Source: Alphaproteobacteria bacterium
GTDB taxonomy: Bacteria; Pseudomonadota; Alphaproteobacteria; Rs-D84
Reading direction: 5' to 3'
Length of the DNA stretch: 45,009 nt
NCBI GenBank assembly: GCA_016301865.1
Contig: JAEDOP010000001.1
Location: forward strand, 1 to 45,009
Shown here: piece after piece, positions 2,400 to 28,008 of the stretch
How positions within the stretch are numbered: position 1 is the stretch's first letter
Layout of the letters: the number at the start of each line of letters is the position of its first letter
The notes under the pieces: model-generated
Databases searched by the model: none
The model's input: only the letters and a program-made list of their open reading frames with translations
Told to the model about the DNA's origin: nothing
Position numbers and translations under genes: made by a program

Positions 2400-2454
2400 G
2401 AAACGCAAAAAATAACTTATTTTGGCCCGAACTTGAAAAAATATAGAAAAAACT

Positions 2455-2548
2455 TTTGGAAATTAAAAATAAATGACTACCTTTGTGCCGTGGTTGATAT
2501 GACAACCCGACGGACGCGGCCGGTTCCGCGATTAAAACAATAACAGTT
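2455..2548 (+). promoter_or_regulatory. Promoter plus structured-leader cassette A
   Basis: TTTG at 2455-2458, 19-nt spacer, TAccTTTG at 2478-2485. Hairpin 1 is GGTTG/CAACC (2492-2507). Hairpin 2 is CGCGG-CCGGTT-CCGCG (2515-2530). The ATG is at 2549. Confidence 0.6.
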
Positions 2549-2782
2549 ATGGCAACGTTAAAATACACTACCCGCAAAATTAACCACAATTACAAAATCA
2601 AGGTTTACGGCCTGTACAATGGCAAAAAGGTTAATACGCTTGTTGGCGTTTCCGGGTTCCTTAAAATGGTCAACGATATTGAACTTTGCAACCGTCTTTT
2701 GGACCGGGCATTTGCTTCGATGAATGATAAATGTGTATGCAAATTGCGCCGTGGTTTGAAGATTTCGTTTTACGTTGCTTAA
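2549..2782 (+). CDS. Hypothetical early protein (77 aa)
   Basis: First ORF behind cassette A. No motif recognised. Confidence 0.6.
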   Translation: MATLKYTTRKINHNYKIKVYGLYNGKKVNTLVGVSGFLKMVNDIELCNRLLDRAFASMNDKCVCKLRRGLKISFYVA

Positions 2783-2794
2783 TTTTCCCGAATT

Positions 2795-3010
2795 ATGAAA
2801 GCGATAACCCGTAACGCGATTGGCACGTTTCAAACGATGGCCACAAAGGAAATTAACGGTTTCCGTTTCACGTCTTGGCGTACCCCAGACAATAAGCGTT
2901 TTTTCTTGGCCCCGGCATCCCTCAATTTGAACATCGAAAGATACGGCGTTAATCCCGACCAATACGAAATTTCGTATGTTCTTTTGGGTCAGTTAAATAT
3001 GGTTCGATAA
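2795..3010 (+). CDS. Hypothetical protein (71 aa)
   Basis: ATG ORF in the co-directional array. No motif recognised. Confidence 0.5.
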   Translation: MKAITRNAIGTFQTMATKEINGFRFTSWRTPDNKRFFLAPASLNLNIERYGVNPDQYEISYVLLGQLNMVR

Positions 3011-3089
3011 TACCCGGCGATAACCCTTGTTCCAAATTTTTTCGAAAAGTAACAACGGGCCGGAAAATCGGCCTATTAAAACAACAAAT

Positions 3090-3332
3090 ATGACACGGAC
3101 AAAATTTCAATTATTAGCGATGGGCGCAATGATTATGGCGACGGCAAACGATAAACAGTTATTCGACACGGGGACGTCCAAAGTTTACGTCAAGCCCATA
3201 TCCAGAACGGATTTGCCACGTTGGGACGTAAACGGGGCGGTCATTTACGCAACGGATGAAAAGACGGCTACTAAATACGCGAAGAAACGCGGTTTGTGGC
3301 GGCCCGGAACGATTGTTAAACCAATTAAATAA
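3090..3332 (+). CDS. Hypothetical protein (80 aa, hydrophobic N-terminus)
   Basis: The first ATG is chosen within track ORF 3027..3332, which begins at a TTG. The N-terminus LLAMGAMIMATA looks like a signal or TM segment. Confidence 0.5.
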   Translation: MTRTKFQLLAMGAMIMATANDKQLFDTGTSKVYVKPISRTDLPRWDVNGAVIYATDEKTATKYAKKRGLWRPGTIVKPIK

Positions 3333-3338
3333 ACAGAT

Positions 3339-3572
3339 ATGCAAAAGTACAGATTTTCCAACCCGGCATCATCGGTCGTTGAGGTTTCGAAAAGCCCGTT
3401 GGACCGTCCGGAACCGGGCAACCGTTACACGATTTTCGATTGTCTTTGCCGCCCTTTAGGCCGGAAACAAGGGCCGCACAAGAAATACCAAGTAACCGCG
3501 ATAACACCGGCGGCGGCTGCCCGGATAGCGATTGAGAATTACCGAAAGGATTATGGCCAAGAAATCAAGTAA
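3339..3572 (+). CDS. Hypothetical protein (77 aa)
   Basis: ATG ORF in the co-directional array. Confidence 0.5.
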   Translation: MQKYRFSNPASSVVEVSKSPLDRPEPGNRYTIFDCLCRPLGRKQGPHKKYQVTAITPAAAARIAIENYRKDYGQEIK

Positions 3573-3849
3573 AGCGACCCGGGAACAAATGTACCGGGAA
3601 ATATTGGAACAGTCCGGAATCCGGTTTGAGGATTGCAAAGTTTTGGCCTTTGCGTTCAAACAGGAACGGCGGCCCGAACTGTTCCATTTCGGGTTGATGT
3701 TGCACGAACCGCGCCCGGTTTATTACCTGTTCGATTGTTGGGACAAATACGCCAACGTCATTGTCCCGAAAGATGAAAAGAACGCGGCCGTTATCATTGC
3801 CATTGCAGAAAAGGACGGTGGCGAAAAGACAACCCCAAATTTGCGATAA
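3553..3849 (+). CDS. Hypothetical protein (98 aa)
   Basis: ATG at 3553 inside track ORF 3532..3849, whose own start is TTG. Confidence 0.5.
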   Translation: MAKKSSKATREQMYREILEQSGIRFEDCKVLAFAFKQERRPELFHFGLMLHEPRPVYYLFDCWDKYANVIVPKDEKNAAVIIAIAEKDGGEKTTPNLR

Positions 3850-3850
3850 G

Positions 3851-4408
3851 ATGGAAACAAACCAAATCATTGATGAATTAAAGGCCGTGGCGGGATTGGA
3901 ATGGAACCCAGAACAAAAAGCGTTTTACAAACAGAGGGCGGCCGACGCCCGGGTGGTTGAATGTGTGCTGATGCGGGACGTGTTCACGCCGGACCAAATG
4001 GAAATGTTATTTAAGAACATCGGGTACAAAACGCAACAAAAAATGTGTTATAAGAATGCGGCCCAATTGGTTGAATGCGTCGAATGGATGACCGGGCATT
4101 ATGACCCGAACATACCGCCCGTTAAATATGTTGAGGGTTACGCGTATTATAACGGCCTATTGCCAATTGAACACGCATTTGTCAAGATTGGGGACAAATA
4201 CATTGACCCAACGTTTGAACGGGCCTTGCATCGGGACGTTCGCAAAGAAATGTACGTGTCTTGCATCGAATTGGACCCGGAAACGATGGCACGTTACCAA
4301 GTGGAAACCGGCTTTTACGGCGAACTGTACCTGTATGATTATATGTGCAAGAATCAGCCGGAATTGGCCGCACGAATCCGGTCGAGGAATCAGCACAACA
4401 GGCAATAA
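3851..4408 (+). CDS. Transglutaminase-core-like / papain-fold Cys-His-Asp protein candidate
   Basis: ATG at 3851 lies directly after the previous stop. The pattern MCYKNAAQLVE ... IEHAFVKIGDKYIDPT has the spacing of a Cys...His-A-F/W...Asp transglutaminase-like core. Confidence 0.35.
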   Translation: METNQIIDELKAVAGLEWNPEQKAFYKQRAADARVVECVLMRDVFTPDQMEMLFKNIGYKTQQKMCYKNAAQLVECVEWMTGHYDPNIPPVKYVEGYAYYNGLLPIEHAFVKIGDKYIDPTFERALHRDVRKEMYVSCIELDPETMARYQVETGFYGELYLYDYMCKNQPELAARIRSRNQHNRQ

Positions 4409-4484
4409 AAAACCACACCCGGCGAACCGGGTGCGGCGGTCAAAATACCGTGGAGGGCGATACGGGTAAAAAGACACGGCAAAG

Positions 4485-4527
4485 ATAGGGAATTTCGGCG
4501 AAATACGCCAATTCCCTATTTCTTTTT
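4485..4527 (+). terminator. Intrinsic terminator
   Basis: 10-bp stem ATAGGGAATT / AATTCCCTAT with an inner GGCG/CGCC extension, followed by TTCTTTTT. Confidence 0.7.
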
Positions 4528-4640
4528 GATTCTTACGGGCTTTTTCCTGTATTCGACACATTGATATACGGGTTTCGGTCCGGAATCTTACACCCAGATT
4601 CAAGAAAAATGCACTTTTGTAAAAAAATTAAGAAAAATTT

Positions 4641-4738
4641 TTTGGTTTTAAGAAAAAAGCCCTATATTTGTACCCGGGTTCGATAAAGAAACCCACGGCC
4701 CGGGCCGGTTCCCGGTAAAAATCAACACCAAATACGCA
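4641..4738 (+). promoter_or_regulatory. Promoter plus structured-leader cassette B
   Basis: TTTG at 4641-4644, 18-nt spacer, TAtaTTTG at 4663-4670. Hairpin 1 is GGGTT/AACCC (4676-4694). Hairpin 2 is CCGGG-CCGGTT-CCCGG (4700-4715). The ATG is at 4739. Confidence 0.6.
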
Positions 4739-4981
4739 ATGAAAGCAAAGGTTTCAACGCTGATGGACAACGGAAAGGTAATTAACCATCGCGGATTCGT
4801 GGACGCGGCGAAATGGATTGACGAACGCATTAACTTTTTGTTGACCATCTACAAATTCGATGATTACAAAGTGACAGTAACCGGCAATGTATATCGTTTA
4901 GTTGCGTGGCGCAATGCCGGAAAGCCGGGAACAAATGGCAAGGCTATGAGCGTAACCCACGTTATTACCGTTGTTGAATAG
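4739..4981 (+). CDS. Hypothetical early protein (80 aa)
   Basis: First ORF behind cassette B. Confidence 0.6.
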   Translation: MKAKVSTLMDNGKVINHRGFVDAAKWIDERINFLLTIYKFDDYKVTVTGNVYRLVAWRNAGKPGTNGKAMSVTHVITVVE

Positions 4982-4989
4982 TTAAACCC

Positions 4990-5009
4990 GGGGCCGGGCA
5001 TCCGGCCCC
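4990..5009 (+). promoter_or_regulatory. GC-rich intercistronic hairpin, family copy 1
   Basis: GGGGCCGG-GCAT-CCGGCCCC. The context aacccGGGGCCGGgcaWCCGGCCCCacaa is almost identical at 15353-15372. Confidence 0.55.
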
Positions 5010-5025
5010 ACAATCCAAACCGAAT

Positions 5026-5394
5026 ATGTCCACAAATTATTACAACGAACAGAAACGCCGCAATGGCCGCGTAAACGAAATAAGGTTGAACGGCCGCACG
5101 GCATACATTGCCAATTACCAAGATGAAAACGGCGTATGTTGTTCCAAAATCCGGGAAACAATGGACGCGGCAAACCGGGATATGGAAGAACACGGATACC
5201 ACAAAAAAGGAATCATTGACGAATCCGGATGCGCCCGATACACAATGACCAAACAACAGTTGCAAGACCTGTACAGGGTGTTCGAAAACTTTGTGGCCGA
5301 TTGTACCCAACAGGAATACAACGAAAACAAACAGGCCATAACGGCGGTATATACGCTAATACATAAACACATCAACAACGAAATTTGCAAGTAA
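5026..5394 (+). CDS. Hypothetical protein (122 aa)
   Basis: ATG ORF in the co-directional array. Confidence 0.6.
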   Translation: MSTNYYNEQKRRNGRVNEIRLNGRTAYIANYQDENGVCCSKIRETMDAANRDMEEHGYHKKGIIDESGCARYTMTKQQLQDLYRVFENFVADCTQQEYNENKQAITAVYTLIHKHINNEICK

Positions 5395-5401
5395 CATTGG
5401 C

Positions 5402-5423
5402 CCGGGAATTCCCCGGATTTTTT
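5402..5423 (+). terminator. Intrinsic terminator candidate
   Basis: CCGGG-AATTC-CCCGG followed by ATTTTTTT. Confidence 0.45.
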
Positions 5424-5466
5424 GTATCTTTGTTTCAAATCTGCTCTATTTTATAAAGGATAATGG

Positions 5467-5494
5467 CACGGTTGCGTTGTGAAATGCGGCCGTG
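5467..5494 (+). terminator. Second hairpin / terminator candidate, related to 2264-2297
   Basis: CACGGUUGC / GCGGCCGUG (two G-U pairs) followed by a U-rich tract. The loop shares gttg.gaaatg with the 2264-2297 element. Confidence 0.4.
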
Positions 5495-5513
5495 TTTCCT
5501 TTATGCCCGTATT

Positions 5514-5532
5514 GGCCCATTTCGGGCGATTT
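5514..5532 (+). promoter_or_regulatory. GGCY-ATTT(T)CGGGCGATTT box, copy 1
   Basis: ggcccATTTCGGGCGATTT. Near-identical boxes lie at 26999-27017 (+) and 33902-33920 (-). Confidence 0.5.
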
Positions 5533-5587
5533 GGTGGGCTTTCTCTCGAAAGTGGGCCAACGGACCATCTTTGCGCCAAACGTGCCT

Positions 5588-5596
5588 TAAATCGAA
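5588..5596 (+). promoter_or_regulatory. TAAATCGAA box, copy 2 of 3
   Basis: gccTTAAATCGAAaattcgggaaaattaag; compare 2391 and 13681. Confidence 0.4.
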
Positions 5597-5690
5597 AATT
5601 CGGGAAAATTAAGTTGTCCAAGATTTTTTGACAGCCAAAGACGATTATTTAATGGCCGGAAATAAAACACTAAAAAATTATGAAAATATT

Positions 5691-5786
5691 TTTGGTAATT
5701 AGAAAATAATACCTATCTTTGTATCCGGGTTGAGGAAGCAACCCAACCGACCCGGCGGGTTCCGGGGACAAAAAACGAAAAGAGTT
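5691..5786 (+). promoter_or_regulatory. Promoter plus structured-leader cassette C
   Basis: TTTG at 5691-5694, 19-nt spacer, TAtcTTTG at 5714-5721. Hairpin 1 is GGGTTG/CAACCC (5727-5744). Hairpin 2 is CCCGG-CGGGTT-CCGGG (5751-5766). The ATG is at 5787. Confidence 0.6.
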
Positions 5787-5984
5787 ATGACAACAATTGA
5801 AACTGCCAACCGCACGAAAACAACGTATTTCGTTGAATATATTTGCGACGACATCAACAATACGTATTGGCAATTGGTTCGTTCCCGCGATGCGGCGATA
5901 CTTGCCGCCAACAAAGATTTGAACGATATTTACGCCCATTGCTTCATTTGCGGGATTAACAAACAGGATGTGACGATTTGGTAA
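5787..5984 (+). CDS. Hypothetical early protein (65 aa)
   Basis: ATG at 5787 lies 20 nt after leader hairpin 2. Track ORF 5730..5984 would start inside the leader. Confidence 0.55.
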   Translation: MTTIETANRTKTTYFVEYICDDINNTYWQLVRSRDAAILAANKDLNDIYAHCFICGINKQDVTIW

Positions 5985-5991
5985 ATAACCC

Positions 5992-6011
5992 GGCCCCGCG
6001 CAACCGGGGCC
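5992..6011 (+). promoter_or_regulatory. GC-rich intercistronic hairpin, variant
   Basis: GGCCCCG-CGCAAC-CGGGGCC directly after the stop at 5984. Confidence 0.45.
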
Positions 6012-6025
6012 AATAAGACCCCCGA

Positions 6026-6041
6026 CCGGGCGGATTCCCGG
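6026..6041 (+). promoter_or_regulatory. Promoter-less copy of leader hairpin 2
   Basis: CCGGG-CGGATT-CCCGG, 7 nt upstream of the ATG at 6049. Confidence 0.5.
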
Positions 6042-6048
6042 AACTGTT

Positions 6049-6492
6049 ATGCGATTCAAGATTGACAAAAATTTGAACGTAGTTGCGGCCGAAAAGGTCG
6101 CATCCGTTGAACACGAAACCGTGGCGGTCGAACTTTGCGCCCGTTTCATTGATGCTGGTATGATTGAGGACACGCCCGACAATTGGGGCGAATCTGTATT
6201 GGCGGCAGCCGGAACGCAATACGTTTCCAATGTGTGCGCCGTCTTGGCCGAATACCTGTATGGCGACGAAACCCGTTCCATCCCGGCCGACGTGTTCGAC
6301 GCGTTTTGCGCCCTTACAATCGTGGGCGATGGCGATTGCCCGCATTGCGGCGGCGAATTAAAGTTTATCGAAACAGAGGGCCACGAACTGAAAGATGGCG
6401 ACTATTACACGCCCAATTCATACGAAATTGACAATTACATTTACGAATGCCGTAATTGCGGCGAAACTATTAAAACCGAAAATGAATTATGA
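6049..6492 (+). CDS. Hypothetical protein with C-terminal zinc ribbon
   Basis: CPHCGG ... (40 aa) ... CRNCGE, i.e. two CxxC pairs at the C-terminus. Confidence 0.6.
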   Translation: MRFKIDKNLNVVAAEKVASVEHETVAVELCARFIDAGMIEDTPDNWGESVLAAAGTQYVSNVCAVLAEYLYGDETRSIPADVFDAFCALTIVGDGDCPHCGGELKFIETEGHELKDGDYYTPNSYEIDNYIYECRNCGETIKTENEL

Positions 6493-6912: not shown

Positions 6913-8247
6913 ATGAAAGACGAAATGACATTTGACCCGGCGTTGGCCGCATTGGTCGAACCCGAAAAGGAACAGGCGATGGAAATTGCGCCCGGAATGA
7001 CTGTTGAAGAAATCCGCGCCGTGTATTTCAATGCGGATGCGTTGAAAGAACCCGCGTACCGGTTGTTCCAACTCAATTCCGACGGACACCGGTATTATTA
7101 CCGCTTCAACGATGCTGGGGAACCGGAATTTTACCCGTCCGTCACGACGTTGTTAAAACAGGTTATGCCGACCCCGCCCGCCCTGTTGGATTGGATGATT
7201 GCCAACGGCAAGGACGGTTCCGCGGAAAAGCGGGATTTGGCCGCCGCGTATGGAACGTTTATGCACGGCCAATTTGAAACGCTTATTATTAACCGGCGTT
7301 ACGACTTTGATTCCGTCCCGGCCACCTTGTTGACATATATGGAACGGGAAAACTTGCCCGAAAAGGTGTTTGCCGAATGGTTGCCGAAAGTACGAAAAGA
7401 TGTGTTGGCGTTCGCCCAATTCATAAAGGATTGGAACGTAAAGCCGTTGGCCGTAGAAATCGGCTTGTACCATCCGAAATTCCATTATGCCGGTTGCCTT
7501 GACTTGCCGTGCGTTATGACTGACCCGAAAACCGGAAAATCGTTCGTGGCAATTGTGGATTTCAAAAGCGGCCGGAAAGGTTTTTACGAAGAACACGAAT
7601 TGCAATTGCATTTATACCGGGAAATGTGGAATGTCCATTATCCAGAAATGCCGGTTGCCCGTGTGTTCAACTTTTCGCCGAAAGATTGGCGCAAGGCCCC
7701 GACGTACAATTTGAAAGACCAAACGGATTCCGAGAACGCCAAGAAATTGCCGTACCTGTTGGCGTTGGCAACGATTGAGGATGAAAAGCGGGATAACACG
7801 TTGACGATTGTACGCGGCGTTTTGGACCTTGACAAAGGCAAGATTTCCGACAACATCTTGAATTTGTCGTTGGCCGAACTTATCAAGACGAAAGCGGCCG
7901 AAAAGGACGCGCCCGAACAGGCAGCGAAAGCCCCGGAAATTTCCAAAGAGGAAATCGAAATTGCCTTAAAAGCCTTGGGAATTTCTCAGGATGCGCCGGA
8001 ACCCGCCAAGAAAGGCCGAAAACGGGCCGTAAAACGCGCCGAACAGACCGAACCGATAAATTCCCCGTCCGAACCGGAAAAGCCCGTTAAAACGGAAATT
8101 CCGGGAAAATTACCGGATGATGGCGCAATAGACAAATTGCCTTGGGAAAATGAACCGGAATCGGCCAAGCCCGCCGGACCTGCGCCGGAACAGATGGCGG
8201 AACAGGCGGCAAAGGATAATTTGTTAAACGACGAAATCGAACTGTAA
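6913..8247 (+). CDS. PD-(D/E)XK (RecB/Cas4-like fold) exonuclease with a disordered P/E/K-rich C-terminal tail
   Basis: GCLDL ... IVDFKSG ... ELQLHLY matches the D...(D/E)xK...QxxxY nuclease motifs. The last ~130 aa are low-complexity. Confidence 0.6.
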   Translation: MKDEMTFDPALAALVEPEKEQAMEIAPGMTVEEIRAVYFNADALKEPAYRLFQLNSDGHRYYYRFNDAGEPEFYPSVTTLLKQVMPTPPALLDWMIANGKDGSAEKRDLAAAYGTFMHGQFETLIINRRYDFDSVPATLLTYMERENLPEKVFAEWLPKVRKDVLAFAQFIKDWNVKPLAVEIGLYHPKFHYAGCLDLPCVMTDPKTGKSFVAIVDFKSGRKGFYEEHELQLHLYREMWNVHYPEMPVARVFNFSPKDWRKAPTYNLKDQTDSENAKKLPYLLALATIEDEKRDNTLTIVRGVLDLDKGKISDNILNLSLAELIKTKAAEKDAPEQAAKAPEISKEEIEIALKALGISQDAPEPAKKGRKRAVKRAEQTEPINSPSEPEKPVKTEIPGKLPDDGAIDKLPWENEPESAKPAGPAPEQMAEQAAKDNLLNDEIEL

Positions 8248-10883: not shown

Positions 10884-11663
10884 ATGGAAACGCGAACATT
10901 CAAAATTGATAATTACATAACGGTTCCCGGATTCGCTATTGTCGAACTTGGATTGTCTGGGAACGATTTGTTGTGTTATTCGTTGATATACGGATTTACC
11001 CAAGACAAAGAGACCGAATTTCGTGGGTCATTGAATTACGTTGCATCGGCCTTGAACGTGACGAAGCAGAACGCCAAAAAGATTATTGACCGGTTGATTG
11101 ACCGGGGATTGATTGAGAAACGCGAAATGTTCTTTTCCGGCGTGAAATTTTGCCATTATGTCGCAAACAGATACGGCGTTGCTGAAATAGCAACGGGGCG
11201 TTGTCAAAACAACAACGGGGGTGTTGCTGAAATAGCAACGGGGGGTGTTGCTAAAATAGCAACGAATATTGATAATAAAGATAATTCTATTGATAACATA
11301 GAAGATACCGCCGACGGCGTTTTATTCCCGACCGAACCGGCATTTGAAACGGTTACAGTTACCCGGCCGCACCGGACCGCTGAACCGGCCGCGTGTCTGT
11401 TCGAAAATTCCAGGTTCGCTGATTACAATGCGTTTGCCGCCGAATTTACGGCCCCGAAATTTGCGGACGTGGATATTGTGTATTATTACCACGCCGTTGC
11501 CGATTGGTCCGCGCAACACGGGCGAAAAATGAAAGATTGGATTGCAACGGCGCGGAATTTCATTCGTGGCGATATGGAAAAGGGCAAGTTGCACCGGAAA
11601 AGCGGGACCGGGCCGGCATTGTCCCCGGATGCAATCAAATATTTACAAGATATGGCTGATTAA
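10884..11663 (+). CDS. Replication initiator / replisome-organiser-like winged-HTH protein
   Basis: N-terminal LCYSLIYGFTQ...SLNYVASALNVTKQNAKKIIDRLIDRGLIEKRE resembles a wHTH. The gene contains iteron-like DNA repeats internally (11178-11263). Confidence 0.5.
   Translation: METRTFKIDNYITVPGFAIVELGLSGNDLLCYSLIYGFTQDKETEFRGSLNYVASALNVTKQNAKKIIDRLIDRGLIEKREMFFSGVKFCHYVANRYGVAEIATGRCQNNNGGVAEIATGGVAKIATNIDNKDNSIDNIEDTADGVLFPTEPAFETVTVTRPHRTAEPAACLFENSRFADYNAFAAEFTAPKFADVDIVYYYHAVADWSAQHGRKMKDWIATARNFIRGDMEKGKLHRKSGTGPALSPDAIKYLQDMAD
11174..11305 (+). repeat. Iteron array plus AT-rich tract (candidate replication origin)
   Basis: The palindromic 17-mer GTTGCTGAAATAGCAAC occurs at 11178-11194, 11223-11239 and 11247-11263 (the last as GTTGCTAAAATAGCAAC), with a degenerate copy near 11201. 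An AT-rich stretch follows with TATTGATAA twice (about 11267 and 11289). Confidence 0.55.
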
Positions 11664-13652: not shown

Positions 13653-13680
13653 GTTGTACCAAGACGGGCCAAAATGCCCG

Positions 13681-13689
13681 TAAATCGAA
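13681..13689 (+). promoter_or_regulatory. TAAATCGAA box, copy 3 of 3
   Basis: cccgTAAATCGAAaatttggcaaaaataacg, preceded by the hairpin ACGGGC/GCCCGT (13664-13681). Confidence 0.4.
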
Positions 13690-13741
13690 AATTTGGCAAA
13701 AATAACGCCCGGTTGTTGGAGACACCAAAATTGTTTGATTT

Positions 13742-14146
13742 ATGAATTTTAAGTATAAAATAGCACGTTATTTATGTGGGACGTTGCAAACGTCGGACAT
13801 TTCATTTACTAAACGAAATGCCGCCGAAAATTGTATAAATGGACAGGTAAACCCGCAACAATGGTTTATACTGAAATTGGGCGGATTGAAAGATATTTGC
13901 GCGAGGGCGGTAAAGAAATACGGCAAAGAATCACAAAAGCGGATGGCAATTGAAGAAACGTCCGAATTGATAAACGCATTAATGAAAGAAACACGGGGCC
14001 GTGTTACTGATGCCGATATAATAACGGAAATAGCCGACGTGCAAATTATGATGGAACAATTATCTATCATATACGGTTATGAAGAGGTAGCAAGGGAACG
14101 AGAACGTAAGTTGGAACGATTAGTTGCACGAATAACCAATGGTTAA
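13742..14146 (+). CDS. mazG: MazG-like nucleotide pyrophosphohydrolase
   Basis: RMAIEETSELINALMKE ... ITEIADVQIMMEQL matches the EExxE...ExxD MazG helices. Confidence 0.6.
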   Translation: MNFKYKIARYLCGTLQTSDISFTKRNAAENCINGQVNPQQWFILKLGGLKDICARAVKKYGKESQKRMAIEETSELINALMKETRGRVTDADIITEIADVQIMMEQLSIIYGYEEVARERERKLERLVARITNG

Positions 14147-14330
14147 TGTTTGTATTCATCGCGACCCATACGGAGCGTACCGGGTATTTTGCAAGCGTGC
14201 CAAATACAAACATTGGCACGAATTAGGAAAACACCGGGAAACCGACGCGGCGTTTGAACAGGCATTGGCGGCCGGAACGGTTGTCTGGTTGCCGAAAATC
14301 ATTGAACCGCCAACGTTGTTTGAAAAATAA
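14139..14330 (+). CDS. Hypothetical protein (63 aa)
   Basis: The ATG overlaps the end of the MazG gene. Confidence 0.5.
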   Translation: MVNVCIHRDPYGAYRVFCKRAKYKHWHELGKHRETDAAFEQALAAGTVVWLPKIIEPPTLFEK

Positions 14331-14341
14331 ATGAAAAAAGT

Positions 14342-14435
14342 TTTGGTAATTAAAAATAAATACTTACCTTTGTATCCGGGTTGAGGTTACAACCCGACGG
14401 CCCGGGCCGGTTCCCGGATATAAAACTAATGAGTT
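14342..14435 (+). promoter_or_regulatory. Promoter plus structured-leader cassette D
   Basis: TTTG at 14342-14345, 19-nt spacer, TAccTTTG at 14365-14372. Hairpin 1 is GGGTTG/CAACCC (14378-14395). Hairpin 2 is CCGGG-CCGGTT-CCCGG (14402-14417). The ATG is at 14436. Confidence 0.6.
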
Positions 14436-14669
14436 ATGAAAGCAAAGGAACTTAAAAACGGGACGTACACAATTAGCGGTATTACCAAAGAAGAAATTAT
14501 TGCGATGGCCGATTATATGGCGTTTGCTGAAAGAGCCGAACACGGTTATATGCACAATGTTGAGGAAATGCGCAAAAGGATTGACGAAATACGCGAAAAT
14601 GGGACTACCGAAAAAATATATATGATGGAATTTTTATTTCGTTGTATGGCAAACGATTTGAGGAAATAA
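14436..14669 (+). CDS. Hypothetical early protein (77 aa)
   Basis: First ORF behind cassette D. Confidence 0.6.
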   Translation: MKAKELKNGTYTISGITKEEIIAMADYMAFAERAEHGYMHNVEEMRKRIDEIRENGTTEKIYMMEFLFRCMANDLRK

Positions 14670-14674
14670 GGAAT

Positions 14675-14748
14675 TGCGTCGTAGTGTAACGGTAACACCC
14701 AAGTTTTTGGCACTTGTATTCCCCGTTCGAATCGGGGCGGCGCAACCA
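14675..14748 (+). tRNA. tRNA-Gln (anticodon TTG), CCA encoded
   Basis: Hand-folded cloverleaf. Acceptor TGCGTCG/CGGCGCA (one G-U pair), D arm GTGT/ACAC, anticodon stem CAAGT/ACTTG with loop TT-TTG-GC, T arm CCCCG-TTCGAAT-CGGGG, discriminator A, then CCA. Confidence 0.8.
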
Positions 14749-14756
14749 AAAAAAAT

Positions 14757-14838
14757 ACCCGTGTGGCGAAATGGTAGCCGCGCAACACTCAAAATATTGT
14801 ACCGTAATGGTGTGCCGGTTCGAATCCGGCCACGGGTA
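14757..14838 (+). tRNA. tRNA-Leu (anticodon CAA), long variable arm
   Basis: Acceptor ACCCGTG/CACGGGT, D region TGGCGAAATGGTAGCCGCG (Leu-type), anticodon loop CT-CAA-AA, variable arm ACC-GTAAT-GGT, T arm GCCGG-TTCGAAT-CCGGC. Confidence 0.8.
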
Positions 14839-14848
14839 CGAAAACGGA

Positions 14849-14864
14849 CCGGGCCGATTCCCGG
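14849..14864 (+). promoter_or_regulatory. Promoter-less copy of leader hairpin 2 directly after tRNA-Leu
   Basis: CCGGG-CCGATT-CCCGG, 21 nt upstream of the ATG at 14886. Confidence 0.5.
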
Positions 14865-14885: not shown

Positions 14886-15341
14886 ATGATGGACACGAAA
14901 AGATTTCAAAAGTATTACCAATCCGGGCCGCATTTCCGGATTGAGAACCCGAACCCGTGTTGGGCTGAAAAACGCGGCTTAAAATGGGACCGTGGCGATT
15001 GCGCCATACGTGCGTTGGCCAACGCCATTTCCTGTTCGTGGGTCGAATCGTTCGAATACTTGACCGCCAAGGCCCGCCGGGATTTCAACGTACCGAATGA
15101 CGGCCCCGGATTCCGCCGTTGGTTGATTGAGGGCGGCGCGGCTTGGACCCATTGCTCGGCCGTCAAGGGTAAATCCCGAATGACCGCGAAACAGTTTGCG
15201 GAAACGCACCCAACCGGCCGTTATGTCATTACGGTTGCATCCCACGAAACCGCGTGTGTTGATGGTGTTATTCTGGACGCGTGGAATTGCGGAGAAAAAG
15301 CGGTTGTCGGTTATTTCGATATGTCGAATTTTAAGTTATAA
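14886..15341 (+). CDS. Papain-fold Cys-His(-Asp) enzyme candidate (151 aa)
   Basis: RGDCAIRALANAI ... YVITVASHETACVDGVILDAWN has a nucleophile Cys at a helix start and a downstream His/Asp, as in cysteine-peptidase-like folds. Confidence 0.35.
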   Translation: MMDTKRFQKYYQSGPHFRIENPNPCWAEKRGLKWDRGDCAIRALANAISCSWVESFEYLTAKARRDFNVPNDGPGFRRWLIEGGAAWTHCSAVKGKSRMTAKQFAETHPTGRYVITVASHETACVDGVILDAWNCGEKAVVGYFDMSNFKL

Positions 15342-15352
15342 TTCATTAACCC

Positions 15353-15372
15353 GGGGCCGGGCAACCGGCCCC
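15353..15372 (+). promoter_or_regulatory. GC-rich intercistronic hairpin, family copy 2
   Basis: GGGGCCGG-GCAA-CCGGCCCC, with the same flanks as 4990-5009. Confidence 0.55.
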
Positions 15373-18502: not shown

Positions 18503-19366
18503 ATGACAATTAACGACGTTTTATTTTTCGATACCGAAACGACCGGCATACCAGACCGTTCGGCCAAATGGGACACGGACTTTGCAGATTACCCGCACGT
18601 TGTGCAAATGGCGTGGATTCACGGTTGCAAGGTTGAAAACCACATTATCCGCCCGGATGGGTGGGAAATCCCGGATGATACCGTGGCGGTCCACGGCATA
18701 ACCACGGAATACGCGTTGGAACACGGGGAACCGTTCGCCGCCGTTGTGGATATGTTCATACAGGATTGCCACGATGCCGGGTTAATTTGCGGTCACAACA
18801 TACATTTCGATACCGGCATTGTCAAAGCCAACATCTTGCGCGAACTTGGCCGGGAATATTACGAGGCAAACGACGTGGAAACCGCGTTGTATAAGGGCAA
18901 GCGAATTGACACGATGCGCCCGACGATGAAATGGGTTGATGCCCGGATGGCGAACGGCCGGTTGAAATTCCCGAATCTTTCCGAACTGTATTCCCGTTGT
19001 TTCCCGGGCGAAACGTTCCCGGCGCACAATGCGATTGAGGATGTAAAGGCAGTTGCCCGTTGTTTGCCCGTTATCCTTGAATTGGGGTTGGTTGAACTGA
19101 AAGTAAAGGAATACCCGGAAGAACAACAGAATAACCCGGTTTCCGCCTTTGCTAACGCCGACGCGGCAAGCGATGCCGCTAAGATTGCGGCCGATGCGGC
19201 AAAGAAATTCGGAGCGGCCCCGGAAACGTCCGGAAATGGCCCTATTTTGGACGCAAAACAAAAAGATGATAAATTACCCATCCAACCGGCGAAAGCCCCG
19301 GAAATCGAAAATTTCACAAAAATAAGCGATGCGGCGGCCGAACTGTTGGACCAAAACGATTTCTAA
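18503..19366 (+). CDS. DnaQ-like DEDDh 3'-5' exonuclease with a low-complexity C-terminal tail
   Basis: FFDTETTG (Exo I), GHNIHFDTG (Exo II) and HNAIEDV (Exo III). Confidence 0.8.
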   Translation: MTINDVLFFDTETTGIPDRSAKWDTDFADYPHVVQMAWIHGCKVENHIIRPDGWEIPDDTVAVHGITTEYALEHGEPFAAVVDMFIQDCHDAGLICGHNIHFDTGIVKANILRELGREYYEANDVETALYKGKRIDTMRPTMKWVDARMANGRLKFPNLSELYSRCFPGETFPAHNAIEDVKAVARCLPVILELGLVELKVKEYPEEQQNNPVSAFANADAASDAAKIAADAAKKFGAAPETSGNGPILDAKQKDDKLPIQPAKAPEIENFTKISDAAAELLDQNDF

Positions 19367-20628: not shown

Positions 20629-20860
20629 TGGCGCCAACATAGTTTTTGGCGCGAACCAACCCGAATATCAACCATTACCGGCCGAACGTGTCGGAAAGCC
20701 CGAAACCGGCCAAATCAATACGTGTTGGGAACTTTCCCCGGATGAACTGAAACAGATACAGGAAACCGGCAAAATTTGGGTTTCCCTGTTGACATTTGGA
20801 CAACCATTGCAACCCGTGTTGGTTTCCGTTGACAAACCCGAACCATACGACCCGGAATGA
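20609..20860 (+). CDS. Hypothetical protein (83 aa)
   Basis: ATG ORF overlapping the upstream gene by 20 nt. Confidence 0.5.
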   Translation: MQPLNFDGANIVFGANQPEYQPLPAERVGKPETGQINTCWELSPDELKQIQETGKIWVSLLTFGQPLQPVLVSVDKPEPYDPE

Positions 20861-22174: not shown

Positions 22175-22347
22175 CAATCAAAACCATTTTATTGCCTGTT
22201 GAAAAGGCGGCATTTATCCAAAAGAACGCATCCGAATATGGTTGCAATTTGGTTGAACTTGCCATTGCCGGGAATAATTCGGCCAAAGTGACCGTTACCG
22301 GCGAAGATGATAACGTAAAAAAATTGTTTGACGAAATTGGCGAATGA
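22171..22347 (+). CDS. Hypothetical small protein (58 aa; below the ORF-track cutoff)
   Basis: Hand translation gives MTIKTILLPVEKAAFIQKNASEYGCNLVELAIAGNNSAKVTVTGEDDNVKKLFDEIGE. There are ATGA overlaps at both ends (22171-22174 and 22344-22347). Confidence 0.5.
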   Translation: MTIKTILLPVEKAAFIQKNASEYGCNLVELAIAGNNSAKVTVTGEDDNVKKLFDEIGE

Positions 22348-22934
22348 TGGAATACGAAGATTATTGGAAACAGAGATTAACGCCTTACGATATTGAATTG
22401 GCGATAATGGTTGAATCCGTGACCGGGAAACCGTGCGAATTGAAGAATGGCGGCGACAATTTCTTTTTCGAAGCGGATTACGAAAAGCACAACGAACCGG
22501 AATATATTTTGGCCATTTGGGACGCAATAGAGGGCCGGACCGGAAAACGCCTTTTGGAAATAAAAGACGACCCCGAACGTCACGCCCTGTTTGTCCGTGT
22601 TAAGTTTTCCGATACCCAATACCCGGGAATCATCCGGCCAACGCGTGACCAATCCCCGCAAGAAACATTCGGAAGCATATATTGTCATAAATTGGTCGAA
22701 ATTCGGGCAATACAGGTTGAACGGGACAACGCCGAATCCGTATTGCAATTTGTCGGAAACGGCGAATGGGAAATTGAACGCCGCCCGGGCGGAAAAGCAA
22801 TGTTCCATTTCCGTAATGCGGCCGGTTCCGTTTATGCCCACGCTCCGGAACATTCATACATCGTTTATATTGCACCGGAACGGTTCGAAATCGTAGATAA
22901 AGAAACGTTCGAAAGGGAATACGAATTACGATGA
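22344..22934 (+). CDS. Hypothetical protein (196 aa)
   Basis: ATG ORF in the co-directional array. Confidence 0.6.
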   Translation: MMEYEDYWKQRLTPYDIELAIMVESVTGKPCELKNGGDNFFFEADYEKHNEPEYILAIWDAIEGRTGKRLLEIKDDPERHALFVRVKFSDTQYPGIIRPTRDQSPQETFGSIYCHKLVEIRAIQVERDNAESVLQFVGNGEWEIERRPGGKAMFHFRNAAGSVYAHAPEHSYIVYIAPERFEIVDKETFEREYELR

Positions 22935-23565: not shown

Positions 23566-24105
23566 ATGGAACAGACCGAACCAAAAAAGAAAGGACGCAA
23601 ACCACAATGGACTGATACCAAAGTGGAAATTATGTGCAAGGCCATTGCAGACGGTAAGAGTTACAAAGACGCTTTTACGGCCGCCCGTGTGTCCAAAGCG
23701 ACGTTTTATAAGCATCTTGCCGAAGATTCGGACTTTCAAGACCGAGTAAAAAAGGCCGAACAGACATACCAAGAATGGTACGATTCCCAATTGGTAGTTG
23801 ACTGTAAACGTTCATTGCTTGAACTGATACGCGGTTACGAATGGGATGAAACCACAACGGAAACGGCAACGGGGAAAGACGGCAAAGAAGCGGTTACGAA
23901 AAAAAAGGTTGTCCACAAAAAGGCTGCGCCGAATCCAACGGCGATTATCTTTGCATTGTGCAACCGTGCGCCGGGCGAATGGTCCAATAAGCACATCCAA
24001 GAATTAAGCGGAAAGATTGAAACGGAAACCAAACCGGGCATTACGTTGGCCAATGTTCCAGATAACCTGTTGGCGCAAGTTATTGACGCAATAAATGGGA
24101 AATAA
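23566..24105 (+). CDS. terS: Terminase small subunit
   Basis: N-terminal HTH (GRKPQWTDTKVEIMCKAIADGKSYKDAFTAARVSKATFYKHLAED) and a position upstream of terL. TAacTTTG lies at 23542-23549. Confidence 0.6.
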   Translation: MEQTEPKKKGRKPQWTDTKVEIMCKAIADGKSYKDAFTAARVSKATFYKHLAEDSDFQDRVKKAEQTYQEWYDSQLVVDCKRSLLELIRGYEWDETTTETATGKDGKEAVTKKKVVHKKAAPNPTAIIFALCNRAPGEWSNKHIQELSGKIETETKPGITLANVPDNLLAQVIDAINGK

Positions 24106-24143: not shown

Positions 24144-24482
24144 ATGGCAAAATATATACATCGCAATATTTGGAATTGGGGCCGAAAAGATACCATCGTA
24201 ATTGCGGACGGTCGCGCATTGTGTCAATTGTCCGTTGAGGATGAAAACCCGGCCGTTGCGTATTTGTCCGATGTTATCGTGTTGGAATCGGCCCGTGGTT
24301 GTGGCCTTGGTAATGACTTGTTGGAAGCGGCAAAGGAACACGCCCGGGAAATGGGCGCAAAAATGTTGTGTTTGTGGGCGGACCCGGAACAATGGGTGGT
24401 TGAGTGGTACAAACGGCACGGATTCAAACAACAATGCGTGTATGATGATGGGATGGTTGGTTTAACGTTTGATTTGGAATAA
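24144..24482 (+). CDS. GNAT-family N-acetyltransferase (112 aa)
   Basis: VIVLESARGCGLGNDLLEAAKEHAREMGAKML...YKRHGF contains the acetyl-CoA binding motif A (R/Q-x-x-G-x-G/A). Confidence 0.7.
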   Translation: MAKYIHRNIWNWGRKDTIVIADGRALCQLSVEDENPAVAYLSDVIVLESARGCGLGNDLLEAAKEHAREMGAKMLCLWADPEQWVVEWYKRHGFKQQCVYDDGMVGLTFDLE

Positions 24483-26998
24483 TGGACGTTGATACGATGC
24501 AAATAACCCGGATGTTGACCGAACACCCGGAAATGTTCTTGCAAGAGGGCGCACGGCGAAACCTGTTGTGGTACGCGCAATATATGGACCCCAACTTTCA
24601 GCCAACGCCGTTCCATCGGGCGTATTATGCCGTATTGGACCGGTTCGCCAAACGCCAAATCAAAAAACTAATCATACAGGCCCCGCCGCAACACGGAAAA
24701 GCATTGCGGGAAGATACGCCGGTATTGACGACAAGCGGATGGAAAAGACACGCGGATTTGCGGCCCGGAGATTATGTATTTGGCGAAGATGGGAAACCGC
24801 GCCGTGTTAAATGGAATAGCGGCGTTTATAAATGCGAATCGCAACGTGTGTGTTTCGCCGATGGCTTTTCGTTGATTGCGGCCCGTCAACACGAATGGGT
24901 CGTGTATGCGGACCACGACGACCATAAAGGCCGTATCCGGGAAATCGTCGAAACTCAAAATTTGTTTTCAAGACGGAACCGGCGCAATCCATATATCCCG
25001 GCCAATGCAATTATTGATATGCCGAAGCGTGATTTGCCTATTTCGCCGTATCTGTTGGGTCTTTGGTTGGGCGACGGGAATAGTTTTGACAAATGGATAA
25101 GTTGCGGGGCGGAAGATATTGAACACTTGCGGCCATTTGCGGTTCAAATCAAACAGGACAAAACGGCATATCGTGTACATTTGTGCGGATTGGAAACGAA
25201 AGATTTGCGCCGCATTAGTGTATTGTTCAACAAACATATCCCCGTCGAATATTTGTTGGCAGATGTTGAAAGTAGGCGCGAATTATTACGTGGATTGATG
25301 GATACGGATGGATGCGTCAATACACGGGGAACGTGCGAATTTTGCCAGAAAGACGGCCAATTAGCAAACGATGTTTACGTGTTGTTGCGGACATTGGGTT
25401 ATAAGCCAACGCGACACACATACATTGCGCGTCTATATGGAAAAGATTGTGGCAATAAGGTTCGAATAACGTTTAATCCGGACCGGGACGATAAAATCTT
25501 TGACATTCAGCGAAAACAACAAAGATTGGAAAATAAATCGTGTTTGGACCGGGACGATAAAAAACGATTCTTTATTGAATCTGTTAACGAATACGGAAAT
25601 GCGGACGTTAATTGTATTGAGGTTGACGGCGGAATATATCTTGCGGGATATGAACTTGTACCAACGCATAATTCCCAAGGGTCAAGCCGGTTTCTTCCAT
25701 CCGATATGTTGGGCCATTTCCCGGATTTGAAGATATGTATTTGTTCGTATGCGGCGACCATTGCAAAGGATTTCAACCGGGACGTTCAACGTTTGATTGA
25801 TTCGGATAAATACCGGGCCATATTCCCAGATACGCAATTGAACGGGTCGAACGTTGTTACAGTTGCCAATAATTACTTGCGAAATTCGGACGTTTTCGAA
25901 ATCGTGAATCATACCGGTTCGTTGCGTGTCGTTGGTCGTGGTGGTTCGCTTACATCCAAGACCGTTGACGTAATGATTTACGATGATTTGTATAAGGATT
26001 CGACGGAAGCGAATAGCCCGATAATCCGGACGGCCGCGTGGGATTGGTTCACGAAAGTTGCACAAACCCGTTTGCACAATGATTCGCAACAATTGGTTGT
26101 GTTTACCCGATGGAACCCCGACGACATTATTGGCAAAATCATTGAATCGGAAAAGGTTATTTTTGTAGAAAAATGGTCCGATTTAGACAACATCCCGTCC
26201 GGGGCGTGGGTATTGGTCAACTTTGAAGCAATCAAGACCGGCGAACCGACGGAAATTGACAACAGGGAACCCGGGCAACCGTTATGGCCGCAACGTCATT
26301 CGTTGGAACGCCTGTTGCAACAAAAACAATTGGACCCGTTGGGTTTCCAATGCCTGTACCAAGGTAATCCGGGCGATGCAACCGCATATCTTTACCAACC
26401 GTTCAAAACGTGGGTCGAAAAATCGGAATGGGGCCAATATATCCGTTCGGGTTGTTACGTTGATGTTGCAGACGAGGGCGATGATTTCTTATTTGCCGCA
26501 ACTTATGACATTTACCGTTCCGAAAATCAAATTTGGAATGAAGCCAAACACCGGATGGAACCGTTGTTGTTTGTGCTGATAACGGACATTGAATTTACCG
26601 ACGAGCCAACCGACGTTACGACCGTGACAGTACCCCGGATGATTAACAACAATGGCGTACAAAAAGCGTGGATTGAATCGAACAACGGCGGGTCCCAATT
26701 CGAAAAGACCGTGAAAAAAAAGGTTCGGGCGTTGACGGTCCCGTTTTACCAAAGCGAAAACAAGGAATCCCGGATTGTAACGAATGCGCCGTTTGTAAAT
26801 CAATATATCATTATGCCGTTCGGGTGGGAAACCCGGTACAAGAAATTCCACGACCATATCGTTGGGTTCTTACGCAAGTTCGATGCGAACACCCACGACG
26901 ACGACGCGGACGGATTGACCGGAATATACGAAAAGGAAATTGCCGACGGAAATACGAAACCATATAACGCCGCATCACGTGGCGTTCGCGTCCATTAA
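24482..26998 (+). CDS. terL: Terminase large subunit, interrupted by an intein (838-aa precursor, about 514 aa after splicing)
   Basis: QAPPQHGK|[intein]|SQGSS restores a GKS Walker A. Walker B is VDVMIYDDLYKD. A C-terminal nuclease-type region follows. Confidence 0.85.
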   Translation: MDVDTMQITRMLTEHPEMFLQEGARRNLLWYAQYMDPNFQPTPFHRAYYAVLDRFAKRQIKKLIIQAPPQHGKALREDTPVLTTSGWKRHADLRPGDYVFGEDGKPRRVKWNSGVYKCESQRVCFADGFSLIAARQHEWVVYADHDDHKGRIREIVETQNLFSRRNRRNPYIPANAIIDMPKRDLPISPYLLGLWLGDGNSFDKWISCGAEDIEHLRPFAVQIKQDKTAYRVHLCGLETKDLRRISVLFNKHIPVEYLLADVESRRELLRGLMDTDGCVNTRGTCEFCQKDGQLANDVYVLLRTLGYKPTRHTYIARLYGKDCGNKVRITFNPDRDDKIFDIQRKQQRLENKSCLDRDDKKRFFIESVNEYGNADVNCIEVDGGIYLAGYELVPTHNSQGSSRFLPSDMLGHFPDLKICICSYAATIAKDFNRDVQRLIDSDKYRAIFPDTQLNGSNVVTVANNYLRNSDVFEIVNHTGSLRVVGRGGSLTSKTVDVMIYDDLYKDSTEANSPIIRTAAWDWFTKVAQTRLHNDSQQLVVFTRWNPDDIIGKIIESEKVIFVEKWSDLDNIPSGAWVLVNFEAIKTGEPTEIDNREPGQPLWPQRHSLERLLQQKQLDPLGFQCLYQGNPGDATAYLYQPFKTWVEKSEWGQYIRSGCYVDVADEGDDFLFAATYDIYRSENQIWNEAKHRMEPLLFVLITDIEFTDEPTDVTTVTVPRMINNNGVQKAWIESNNGGSQFEKTVKKKVRALTVPFYQSENKESRIVTNAPFVNQYIIMPFGWETRYKKFHDHIVGFLRKFDANTHDDDADGLTGIYEKEIADGNTKPYNAASRGVRVH
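24701..25672 (+). mobile_element. Intein (324 aa) with a LAGLIDADG homing endonuclease domain, inserted in the terL P-loop
   Basis: Starts ALREDTPVLT (Ala1) and ends VPTHN followed by +1 Ser. Block B is GFSLIAARQHEW. Block F is VNCIEVDGG. LAGLIDADG motifs are LLGLWLGDGN and LLRGLMDTDGC. The endonuclease core is AT-richer than the exteins. Confidence 0.8.
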
Positions 26999-27814: not shown

Positions 27815-28008
27815 TGAACGCCAAGACAACCACGGTAACGTTGGTTGCGAACGGCGTTACCCGGGAATTTGAATTTTCCCACGCGGAACGATTGTTAAGG
27901 ATGCCGAATAACGGCGGTTGGAAATTGCCAGAAAAAACGAAATTCGAATTTAGCGTGAACTATGGGTTACGACGTTGCCAAGATAAGGAAAAAAATAGCG
28001 GAAAATAA
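27814..28008 (+). CDS. Hypothetical protein (64 aa)
   Basis: The ATG overlaps the upstream stop (TAATG). Confidence 0.45.
   Translation: MNAKTTTVTLVANGVTREFEFSHAERLLRMPNNGGWKLPEKTKFEFSVNYGLRRCQDKEKNSGK

Follow-up and report, generated by a model that had tools for sequence, protein, structure and literature searches.

The window analysed here, a stretch of 45,009 nucleotides (nt) at positions 1 to 45,009 of contig JAEDOP010000001.1 (assembly GCA_016301865.1), carries four promoter-leader cassettes (A to D) at 2455-2548, 4641-4738, 5691-5786 and 14342-14435, precisely where a sequence-only reading had located them by direct inspection. In each of them, a promoter, a 5' hairpin (hairpin 1), a compact RNA pseudoknot and an A-rich spacer precede the ATG of a small open reading frame (ORF). 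Judged from its gene content, the window is an essentially complete genome of a Bacteroidales siphovirus of about 45 kb: all long ORFs throughout the window are on the + strand, PHROGs assigns a small terminase (23566-24105), a large terminase (24482-26998) and a portal protein (27962-29704), and a protein search with the latter found 66-68% identity to the portals of Bacteroides phage BKO1-3, Alistipes phage AS73P1 and Parabacteroides phage PDS1, all of which are cultured Bacteroidales siphoviruses of 44-45 kb. The early half of the genome covers about 1-24 kb and is followed by the late half, and PHROGs matches to recombination or replication genes lie in the first half of the window.

The cassettes had been ascribed promoters of the Bacteroidota housekeeping-sigma type, and this architecture is borne out. 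The cassette pattern, i.e., the promoter pattern TTTG-N17-21-TAnnTTTG extended by N3-12-GGTT, has exactly four matches in the window versus 0.12 expected, a number not reached in any of 100 shuffles, and the motif agrees with the published consensus of Bacteroides housekeeping promoters consisting of TTTG at -33 and TAnnTTTG at -7 (PMC7366714). The promoter pattern by itself is matched ten times, the four cassette sites being the only intergenic ones on the + strand. The promoter of cassette A (2455-2485) combines TTTG at 2455-2458 with a 19-nt spacer and the -7 box TACCTTTG at 2478-2485, and the same -7 box is present at 14365-14372 in cassette D (promoter 14342-14372, TTTG at 14342-14345, 19-nt spacer). 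Cassette B (4641-4670) has TTTG at 4641-4644, a spacer of 18 nt and TATATTTG at 4663-4670, cassette C (5691-5721) has TTTG at 5691-5694, a spacer of 19 nt and TATCTTTG at 5714-5721. Besides, six weakly alike (66-79%) A-rich repeats of 38 nt with the form GCCAAA-N-TAAATCGAAAATT-N-AAAATAA are found at 2378-2415, 5575-5612, 8075-8112, 13668-13705, 19288-19325 and 20681-20718, two of them 40-80 nt upstream of cassettes A and C. These may be either chance low-complexity matches or upstream promoter elements.

The second of the two RNA structures had been read as a hairpin with the constant loop C(C/G)GGTT. Its sequence is as described and the stems were confirmed, with CGCGG/CCGCG in cassette A, CCGGG/CCCGG in B and D, and CCCGG/CCGGG in C; the supposed loop, however, is not a loop, as its first three bases pair with the 3-nt linker just 5' of the stem. 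The element is hence a compact H-type pseudoknot of 20 nt, in which a first helix (S1, 3 bp) is followed by a connector L1 of 1 nt (A or C), the second helix (S2, 5 bp) and a connector L3 of 3 nt ending in UU or UA. In aligned cassettes from IMG/VR, the linker ACGG always occurs with CCGGTT, and ACCG always with CGGGTT. A strict architecture scan and a covariance model agree on six copies in the window, all of them on the + strand between 2.5 and 15 kb, which sustains the count of six given before. The four cassettes score 53-69 bits in the covariance model, while the next best non-copy in the window reaches only 11 bits. In cassette A, the pseudoknot (2511-2530, CGG-A-CGCGG-CCG-GTT-CCGCG) is followed by an A-rich spacer of 18 nt (2531-2548) and ORF 2549-2782 (77 aa, phrog_32997), in cassette B (4696-4715, CGG-C-CCGGG-CCG-GTT-CCCGG) by 23 nt and ORF 4739-4981 (80 aa), in cassette C (5747-5766, CCG-A-CCCGG-CGG-GTT-CCGGG) by 20 nt and ORF 5787-5984 (65 aa), and in cassette D (14398-14417, CGG-C-CCGGG-CCG-GTT-CCCGG) by 18 nt and ORF 14436-14669 (77 aa). 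Thus, spacers of 18-23 nt and ORFs of 65-80 aa are present as proposed, and BLASTP likewise found the ORFs not to be mutually similar; the spacer is predicted by folding to be unpaired. Two further copies lack a promoter. One of these (6022-6041, CCG-A-CCGGG-CGG-ATT-CCCGG; 20.9 bits, E 5e-4) has a GC hairpin (5992-6011) upstream and ends 7 nt before the ATG of ORF 6049-6492, the other (14845-14864, CGG-A-CCGGG-CCG-ATT-CCCGG; 25.8 bits, E 2e-5) begins 5 nt (GAAAA) after a tRNA-Leu gene and ends 21 nt before the ATG of ORF 14886-15341. No pseudoknot was found in the window near the small terminase, terminase, portal or tail genes, so that the copies are confined to the early region, and phage BKO1-3 likewise restricts its copies to early-region genes. 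For ORF 2549-2782, the first early gene and a widely conserved one, 1199 homologues were found; Pfam domains and informative names are absent from all of the 120 listed.

The claim of a selected RNA structure, now better supported than in the initial reading, holds in many related genomes, where pairing is kept across compensatory changes with strong covariation in both helices. A pattern scan of IMG/VR gave about 40 true cassettes, 28 of them distinct, on roughly 20 phage contigs mostly of 42-46 kb. In the alignment of these 28 distinct cassettes (A1), 92% of the cells are paired, and the covariation score is 0.25 compared to 0.07 in shuffles, with none of 500 shuffles reaching 0.25. The middle pair of S1 is GC in 15 and CG in 13 cassettes and never unpaired, and three of the S2 pairs covary. 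A second alignment (A2) comprises 16 distinct pseudoknots upstream of one orthologous gene, at loci found via homology to the protein encoded after cassette A. Here, 100% of 128 cells are paired and six of eight pairs have changed on both sides; as the segments were placed by the S2 stem, S1 alone provides an unbiased test in A2, and it occurs as CGG/CCG, CCG/CGG, ACG/CGT and CTG/CAG. When an S2 hairpin with an A-rich tail and an ATG was the sole criterion of selection, 46 of 145 candidates showed all three S1 pairs in register, as opposed to 0-3 in shifted registers. Similarly, an IMG/VR scan leaving both middle bases of S1 free (S...S) resulted in 71 C/G, 32 G/C and no non-complementary combinations among 103 distinct contexts. 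Ten cassette pairs have 65-nt upstream flanks at least 90% identical and yet carry different, fully compensated helices, hence the helix changes are recurrent and not due to one inherited event. Overall, at least six variants of S1 and at least ten of S2 were seen. Conserved beyond the need for pairing are a G-C pair at position 3 of S1, a G-C pair at position 4 of S2, positions 2-3 of L3, which are mostly UU, and L1, which is mostly A. A connector of 1 nt spanning the deep groove of a 5-bp helix and one of 3 nt spanning the shallow groove of a 3-bp helix are geometrically feasible. For this reason, and because selection would hardly maintain a helix of 3 bp as a hairpin of its own, S1 and S2 are read as forming together and not as a switch.

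In 92 distinct contexts, the pseudoknot is followed by the ATG of an ORF with 40 or more codons, and the gap between its end and this ATG peaks at 14-22 nt with a mode of 18-20 nt; a minor class lies at 7 nt, the arrangement found at 6022, which is also seen in relatives. The upstream context is a promoter in 74 of these cases, the 3' end of a tRNA with an AAAA spacer in nine and otherwise intercistronic in the remaining nine. In a second IMG/VR scan, many of the copies in relatives come after the stop codon of a homologue of ORF 2549-2782 and ahead of the gene that follows. Every family-like copy found is on the gene strand at a constrained distance to an ATG. Accordingly, the constant relation of the pseudoknot is its distance to the start codon and not its nearness to a promoter or a 5' end. 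The proposal that the structure marks the extreme 5' end of the transcript has therefore to be revised, since the pseudoknot also stands after tRNAs and between cistrons and, in cultured relatives, after promoters lacking hairpin 1. Likewise, the notion of promoter and leader as one cassette applies to the four sites, where all parts are present, but promoter, 5' hairpin, pseudoknot and A-rich spacer are separable.

The tRNA context is represented in the window by genes for tRNA-Gln (14675-14748, + strand) and tRNA-Leu (14757-14839, + strand), located between the ORF of cassette D and the pseudoknot at 14845-14864; these are the only Rfam matches above gathering threshold in the whole window. 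The tRNA-AAAA-pseudoknot arrangement recurs in 9-10 distinct relatives. More generally, an order of tRNA genes in the early operon, about 2-5 nt that are mostly A (typically AAAA), pseudoknot and next gene was observed in the window at 14675-14864 and in relatives L003, L009, L011, L012, L022, L023, L034, L210, L255, L260, L279 and L316. Processing of the tRNA 3' end would leave a downstream mRNA beginning a few nt before the pseudoknot. Another recurrent feature between early genes are GC-rich hairpins of 7-8 bp, such as GGGGCCGG-GCAT-CCGGCCCC, at 4990-5009, 5992-6011 and 15353-15372. They lie 5-11 nt past a stop codon, have AACCC on their 5' side and ACAA or AAUAA on their 3' side, and lack a U tract. 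For two of them, the next ATG is 16 nt downstream, whereas the third stands ahead of the 6022 pseudoknot; counterparts exist in relatives L056, L062 and L069 as well as at many other loci. These hairpins may be processing sites, 3'-end stabilisers or unconventional terminators.

In total, more than 100 distinct copies of the pseudoknot were found in IMG/VR phages. An identical B-type cassette precedes three different ORF starts, one in L003, one in L004 and L010, and one in L016. Among the cultured relatives, BKO1-3 carries copies at 13961, 13672 and 5678 and a variant with an L3 of 4 nt at 11601, and PDS1 at 1912, 2207 and 10418 (bases 1-24000 scanned), all on the gene strand in the early region. 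In these genomes, deposited gene models begin upstream of the real ATG and cross the pseudoknot, as in gp22 (13674-13979) and gp9 (5433-5723) of BKO1-3 (L233) and gp_5 (1886-2203) of PDS1 (L234). The same over-extension is seen in proteins P0009, P0017, P0037 and others, and many homologues of the 77-aa protein are listed as having 90-115 aa. Because gene models start too far upstream, the motif is hidden within annotated coding sequences. Searches of deposited phage genomes by megablast with 25 kb and by blastn with cassette D found no full cassette, only the promoter part matching other Bacteroidota phages. A scan of bacterial genome contigs with the pattern of the whole cassette, not of the pseudoknot alone, gave among the matches listed true cassettes only on contigs of about 2-47 kb in unrelated metagenome-assembled genomes, which are probably phage contigs. 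Most of the matches listed were chance hits in GC-rich genomes; no true cassette on a bacterial chromosome was among them, and the Bacteroidota hits were due to chance as well.

Hairpin 1 had been described uniformly as GGGTTG-N6-CAACCC. This form is found in cassettes C (5727-5744, GGGTTG-AGGAAG-CAACCC) and D (14377-14396, CGGGTTG-AGGTTA-CAACCCG), but not in A (2492-2507, GGTTG-ATATGA-CAACC, at the predicted transcript start) and B (4676-4694, GGGTT-N9-AACCC); all four are on the + strand. In 71 distinct segments between -7 box and pseudoknot, a stem of at least 5 bp is present in 70% (17% of shuffles) and one of at least 6 bp in 56% (4.5% of shuffles). The identical position is taken by nine or more stem sequences that are unrelated to each other, for example, GGGTTG/CAACCC, GGGTCA/TGGCCC, GGATTCG/TGAATCC, CGGAACGA/TTGTTCCG and GTGTTGA/TCAACAC, and the closing pair covaries in alignment A1. 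The stem starts 2-6 nt past the -7 box, which would place it at about +1 when assuming, from promoter geometry, a transcription start about 5 nt past this box. In a subgroup including PDS1 and BKO1-3, only 15 nt separate -7 box and pseudoknot and hairpin 1 is absent, so that hairpin 1 and pseudoknot are separable modules. Most of the hairpin 1 loops open with AGGA or AGGT, e.g., at 5733-5738 (AGGAAG) and 14384-14389 (AGGTTA) and also in relatives, a Shine-Dalgarno (SD)-like purine motif in an apical loop that is odd for a clade without SD pairing. Conversely, a promoter followed by a hairpin-1-like stem (GTGGTT-N7-AACCAT) without pseudoknot occurs at 22312-22345 in PDS1 and at 38636 (- strand) in BKO1-3, upstream of a gene adjoining the large terminase. 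The annotations of this gene, 'RNA polymerase sigma factor' for PDS1 and 'Rnase E' for BKO1-3, look doubtful since its position corresponds to that of the small terminase in the window. A phage sigma factor for late genes, considered from the annotation of PDS1 gp43, was dismissed, as the gene is at the small-terminase position and not similar to ORF 22344-22934 of the window.

These results directly support the promoter motifs and, through covariation, the two RNA structures, as well as their positions, the restriction to the early region, the distribution and the portability; we infer the transcription start and any effect on stability or translation. The roles initially suggested, mRNA stabilisation, binding of a regulator and SD-independent control of translation, are all live hypotheses. 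Our preferred, albeit tentative, reading is that of a cis-acting leader module of early mRNAs, which would protect and insulate an A-rich, SD-less landing pad for the ribosome. Host RNA polymerase with the Bacteroidota housekeeping sigma factor would start at the TTTG/TAnnTTTG promoter, and the RNA would begin at hairpin 1 or no more than a few nt away from it, so that a 5'-terminal stem-loop would cap the primary transcript and hinder decay depending on the 5' end. Stem-loops of the ompA type in 5' untranslated regions (UTRs) are 5'-terminal stabilisers that leave fewer than about 4 unpaired nt at the transcript 5' end and guard against 5'-end-dependent entry of RNase E. Hairpin 1 would resemble them in lying within a few nt of the predicted start, a likeness limited to hairpin 1; the pseudoknot has an internal location that is linked to the start codon. 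Bacteroidota have neither RNase J nor 5'-3' exonuclease activity and use RNase E/G and RNase Y, with cleavage favouring A and 5'-monophosphorylated decay intermediates (5'P ends) preferentially starting with A (PMC10234816); it is this reliance on RNase E/G and RNase Y that would make a 5' stem-loop an obstacle to decay. The pseudoknot, with S1 and S2 stacking into about 8 bp, would form a very stable, self-contained boundary at the 5' edge of the A-rich unstructured landing pad, the latter having approximately the length of a normal Bacteroides 5' UTR. In Bacteroides mRNAs, SD sequences are absent, positions -3, -6 and -11 to -15 are rich in A, and the modal 5' UTR is 23 nt (PMC7366714); hence, the pseudoknot stands where an ordinary leader would begin. 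Such a boundary would keep the landing pad single-stranded whatever is upstream, be it promoter leader, tRNA trailer or a preceding ORF, and would block nucleases coming from the 5' side. The early gene downstream would thereby be expressed strongly and irrespective of its context. As a portable unit of promoter, hairpin, pseudoknot and spacer, the same cassette occurs before unrelated ORFs. This two-part leader is favoured as it fits the diversity of what lies upstream, the confinement to early genes and the occurrence of an identical cassette ahead of different ORFs.

Several points weigh against the protective leader. The transcription start is taken solely from promoter geometry, and the roughly 10 unpaired nt ahead of the pseudoknot in PDS1 and BKO1-3 mean that in these phages it does not protect a 5' terminus. 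Any hairpin could provide a generic barrier, and GC hairpins do precede other genes, leaving unexplained why a pseudoknot is kept. The conserved junction-proximal G-C pairs, the A or C in L1 and the U-rich L3 could reflect a specific partner, and the class with only 7 nt to the ATG should hinder binding of the 30S subunit, which a protective leader does not explain. The folding energy of single sequences is no better than that of shuffles (z +0.1 to -1.4), so that structural support comes from covariation and not from thermodynamics, and in the minimum-energy fold of B and D, the 5' CCGGG competes by pairing with the 5' arm of S2. Upon inspection of the alignment, the latter was rejected as a by-product of CCGGG-rich sequence, being out of register between copies and lost in L026. 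A wobble test for the transcribed strand gave 8 G.U versus 6 A.C in copies with a single mismatch, counts which alone do not prove the strand.

A specific partner is central to the main rival explanation, in our estimate a rather unlikely one, according to which the pseudoknot is an operator for a trans-acting RNA-binding protein, either an early/middle phage protein or a host factor such as ribosomal protein S1, that co-regulates the early genes; the partner could also be the ribosome itself, and binding could shut off or boost translation. Models for this are gp32 of T4, which nucleates on a 5' pseudoknot and spreads over an A/U-rich leader, and RegA of T4, acting on many early mRNAs. An operator would be in line with one motif standing before at least six unrelated early genes per genome and not before late ones, with invariant positions (S1 position 3, S2 position 4, L3 and L1) that exceed the pairing requirement, and with a distance of 14-22 nt from the ATG, which lets a bound protein occlude the 30S footprint. 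Moreover, ribosomal protein S1 engages pseudoknots and structured leaders (PMC7038950, PMC3858243), and precedent exists in the gene 32 operator of T4 and T2, also a compact, coaxially stacked H-type pseudoknot in a phage leader, from which an unstructured A-rich tract extends to the initiation region (PMC3014915). Compared with T4 gene 32, the element in the window shows no sequence similarity, has only 20 nt, is mostly located 14-22 nt from the ATG instead of about 67 nt, and precedes many unrelated genes and not one autoregulated gene for a single-stranded DNA-binding protein. Autogenous control as in gene 32 is unlikely because the downstream genes are diverse, i.e., six unrelated small ORFs. 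The conserved positions are all at the helix junction, where folding constraints could explain them, and a partner candidate was not found: the product of ORF 2549-2782 was considered and rejected, belonging to no Pfam family and yielding an AlphaFold model (pLDDT 58.6) too poor for a fold search. Closely related is the idea, which we regard as improbable, that the pseudoknot is an SD-independent ribosome-recruiting element docking the Bacteroidota 30S subunit, directly or via ribosomal protein S1, at a fixed distance from the start codon. If true, it would allow for efficient internal initiation on polycistronic early phage mRNAs, out-competing host mRNAs, and would represent a minimal bacterial module resembling an internal ribosome entry site.

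The put RNAs of phage HK022 are cis-acting antiterminators downstream of early promoters, and hairpin 1 plus pseudoknot might, in an analogous role that we deem quite improbable, mediate processive antitermination and thus read-through from the four early promoters into about 30 kb of same-strand genes. Common to both systems are two RNA structures just past early promoters and genes all on one strand; besides, no further intergenic host-type promoter is found past 14342, and strong GC hairpins follow the first ORFs. However, copies also reside at a distance from any promoter, between cistrons and past tRNAs, and are invariably close to a start codon, a constrained spacing that antitermination leaves unexplained. 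Terminators are not evident either, as terminator-like sites are not enriched in the window (37 found versus 36.8 expected) and the GC hairpins have no U tracts, and neither by sequence nor in Rfam does the element resemble known antiterminator RNAs.

Even less credible is an action of the repeats as DNA, with palindromic repressor operators or conserved patches of homology serving recombination among phages, having no function in RNA. Inverted repeats next to promoters might point to this, as might the identical cassettes before different ORFs, reminiscent of the promoter-early stem-loop (PeSL) modules of T4-like phages (PMC4122927). The latter are likewise short repeats combining an early host-type promoter with a stem-loop, inserted among small variable early ORFs before unrelated genes (PMC4122927, PMC2839356). 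In PeSL cassettes, however, the stem-loop is a terminator upstream of the promoter, while the order in the window is promoter, hairpin and pseudoknot, with the structures in the 5' UTR, including a pseudoknot, covarying as RNA and also occurring without a promoter. Base identity shifts while pairing stays, in two interleaved helices one of which has just 3 bp, whereas a dimeric DNA-binding protein would conserve bases and not complementarity. Interleaved complementarity together with fixed connectors of 1 and 3 nt fits a pseudoknot but not a DNA operator, and the copies are on the gene strand at a constrained distance to the ATG. Recombination may well use the cassettes, yet this would leave the covariation unexplained. 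A small ligand-binding riboswitch of the preQ1-I type (RF00522), also an H-type pseudoknot close to a translation start with an A-rich 3' tract and weakly matched by cassette D in cmscan through stem and A-rich tail (15 bits, E 0.78), has next to no chance of being correct, since 15 bits compares with a gathering threshold of 39, only one of six copies matches and does so on its A-rich tail, the loop has 6 nt instead of about 12, the helix order is reversed (short helix first) with the second helix involving the 5' flank and not the 3' tail, an L1 of 1 nt, no L2 and an L3 of 3 nt leave no space for a ligand pocket, and the downstream genes are unrelated small ORFs with no domains of queuosine synthesis or transport. 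A stimulator of frameshifting or read-through was rejected as well, the distance from the upstream stop codon being inconsistent and most copies having no upstream ORF.

Apart from the cassettes, two further repeat systems were observed in the window. Tandem arrays of a 27-nt (9-codon) unit are present at both ends, at 12-338 and 44604-45004, with 12 and 15 copies, respectively, of about 73% match. Bases 1-300 and 44700-44999 are 90% alike, and the end array overlaps ORF 27-557. Both are probably one array that was split where a circular or terminally redundant assembly was opened. At 11178-11264, 3.8 copies of a 24-nt unit (spacing of 22-24 nt) are found, each consisting of the inverted repeat GTTGCT-AAAATA-AGCAAC and a subsequent GGGGG. 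These iteron-like units are part of ORF 10884-11663, weakly similar to a replication initiator in PHROGs, and may be a replication origin.

The general kind of element, a structured cis-acting phage leader or a promoter-associated mobile cassette, is already known. What appears to be new is this motif with its architecture as a pseudoknot and its employment by phages of the SD-less Bacteroidota. With Rfam 15 (cmscan), no family other than the tRNAs was found at gathering threshold, and the best E value in E-value mode on 14300-14480 and 2400-6100 was 0.78; a description of the motif was not found in keyword searches of a paper library. Bacteroidota are the dominant Gram-negative phylum of the gut, translating without SD sequences, and little is known of their post-transcriptional control. 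In this setting, over a hundred distinct copies of the pseudoknot stand before early genes of common gut and rumen phages of about 45 kb, and as hosts are in culture (Bacteroides koreensis for BKO1-3 and Parabacteroides distasonis for PDS1), the element is directly testable. Should translation efficiency or the lifetime of the mRNA depend on the element, this would reveal how phages secure expression in a host without SD pairing and would provide a compact, portable expression or insulator part for Bacteroides engineering. It would also correct gene models, since deposited annotations often extend the start of the downstream gene across the element.

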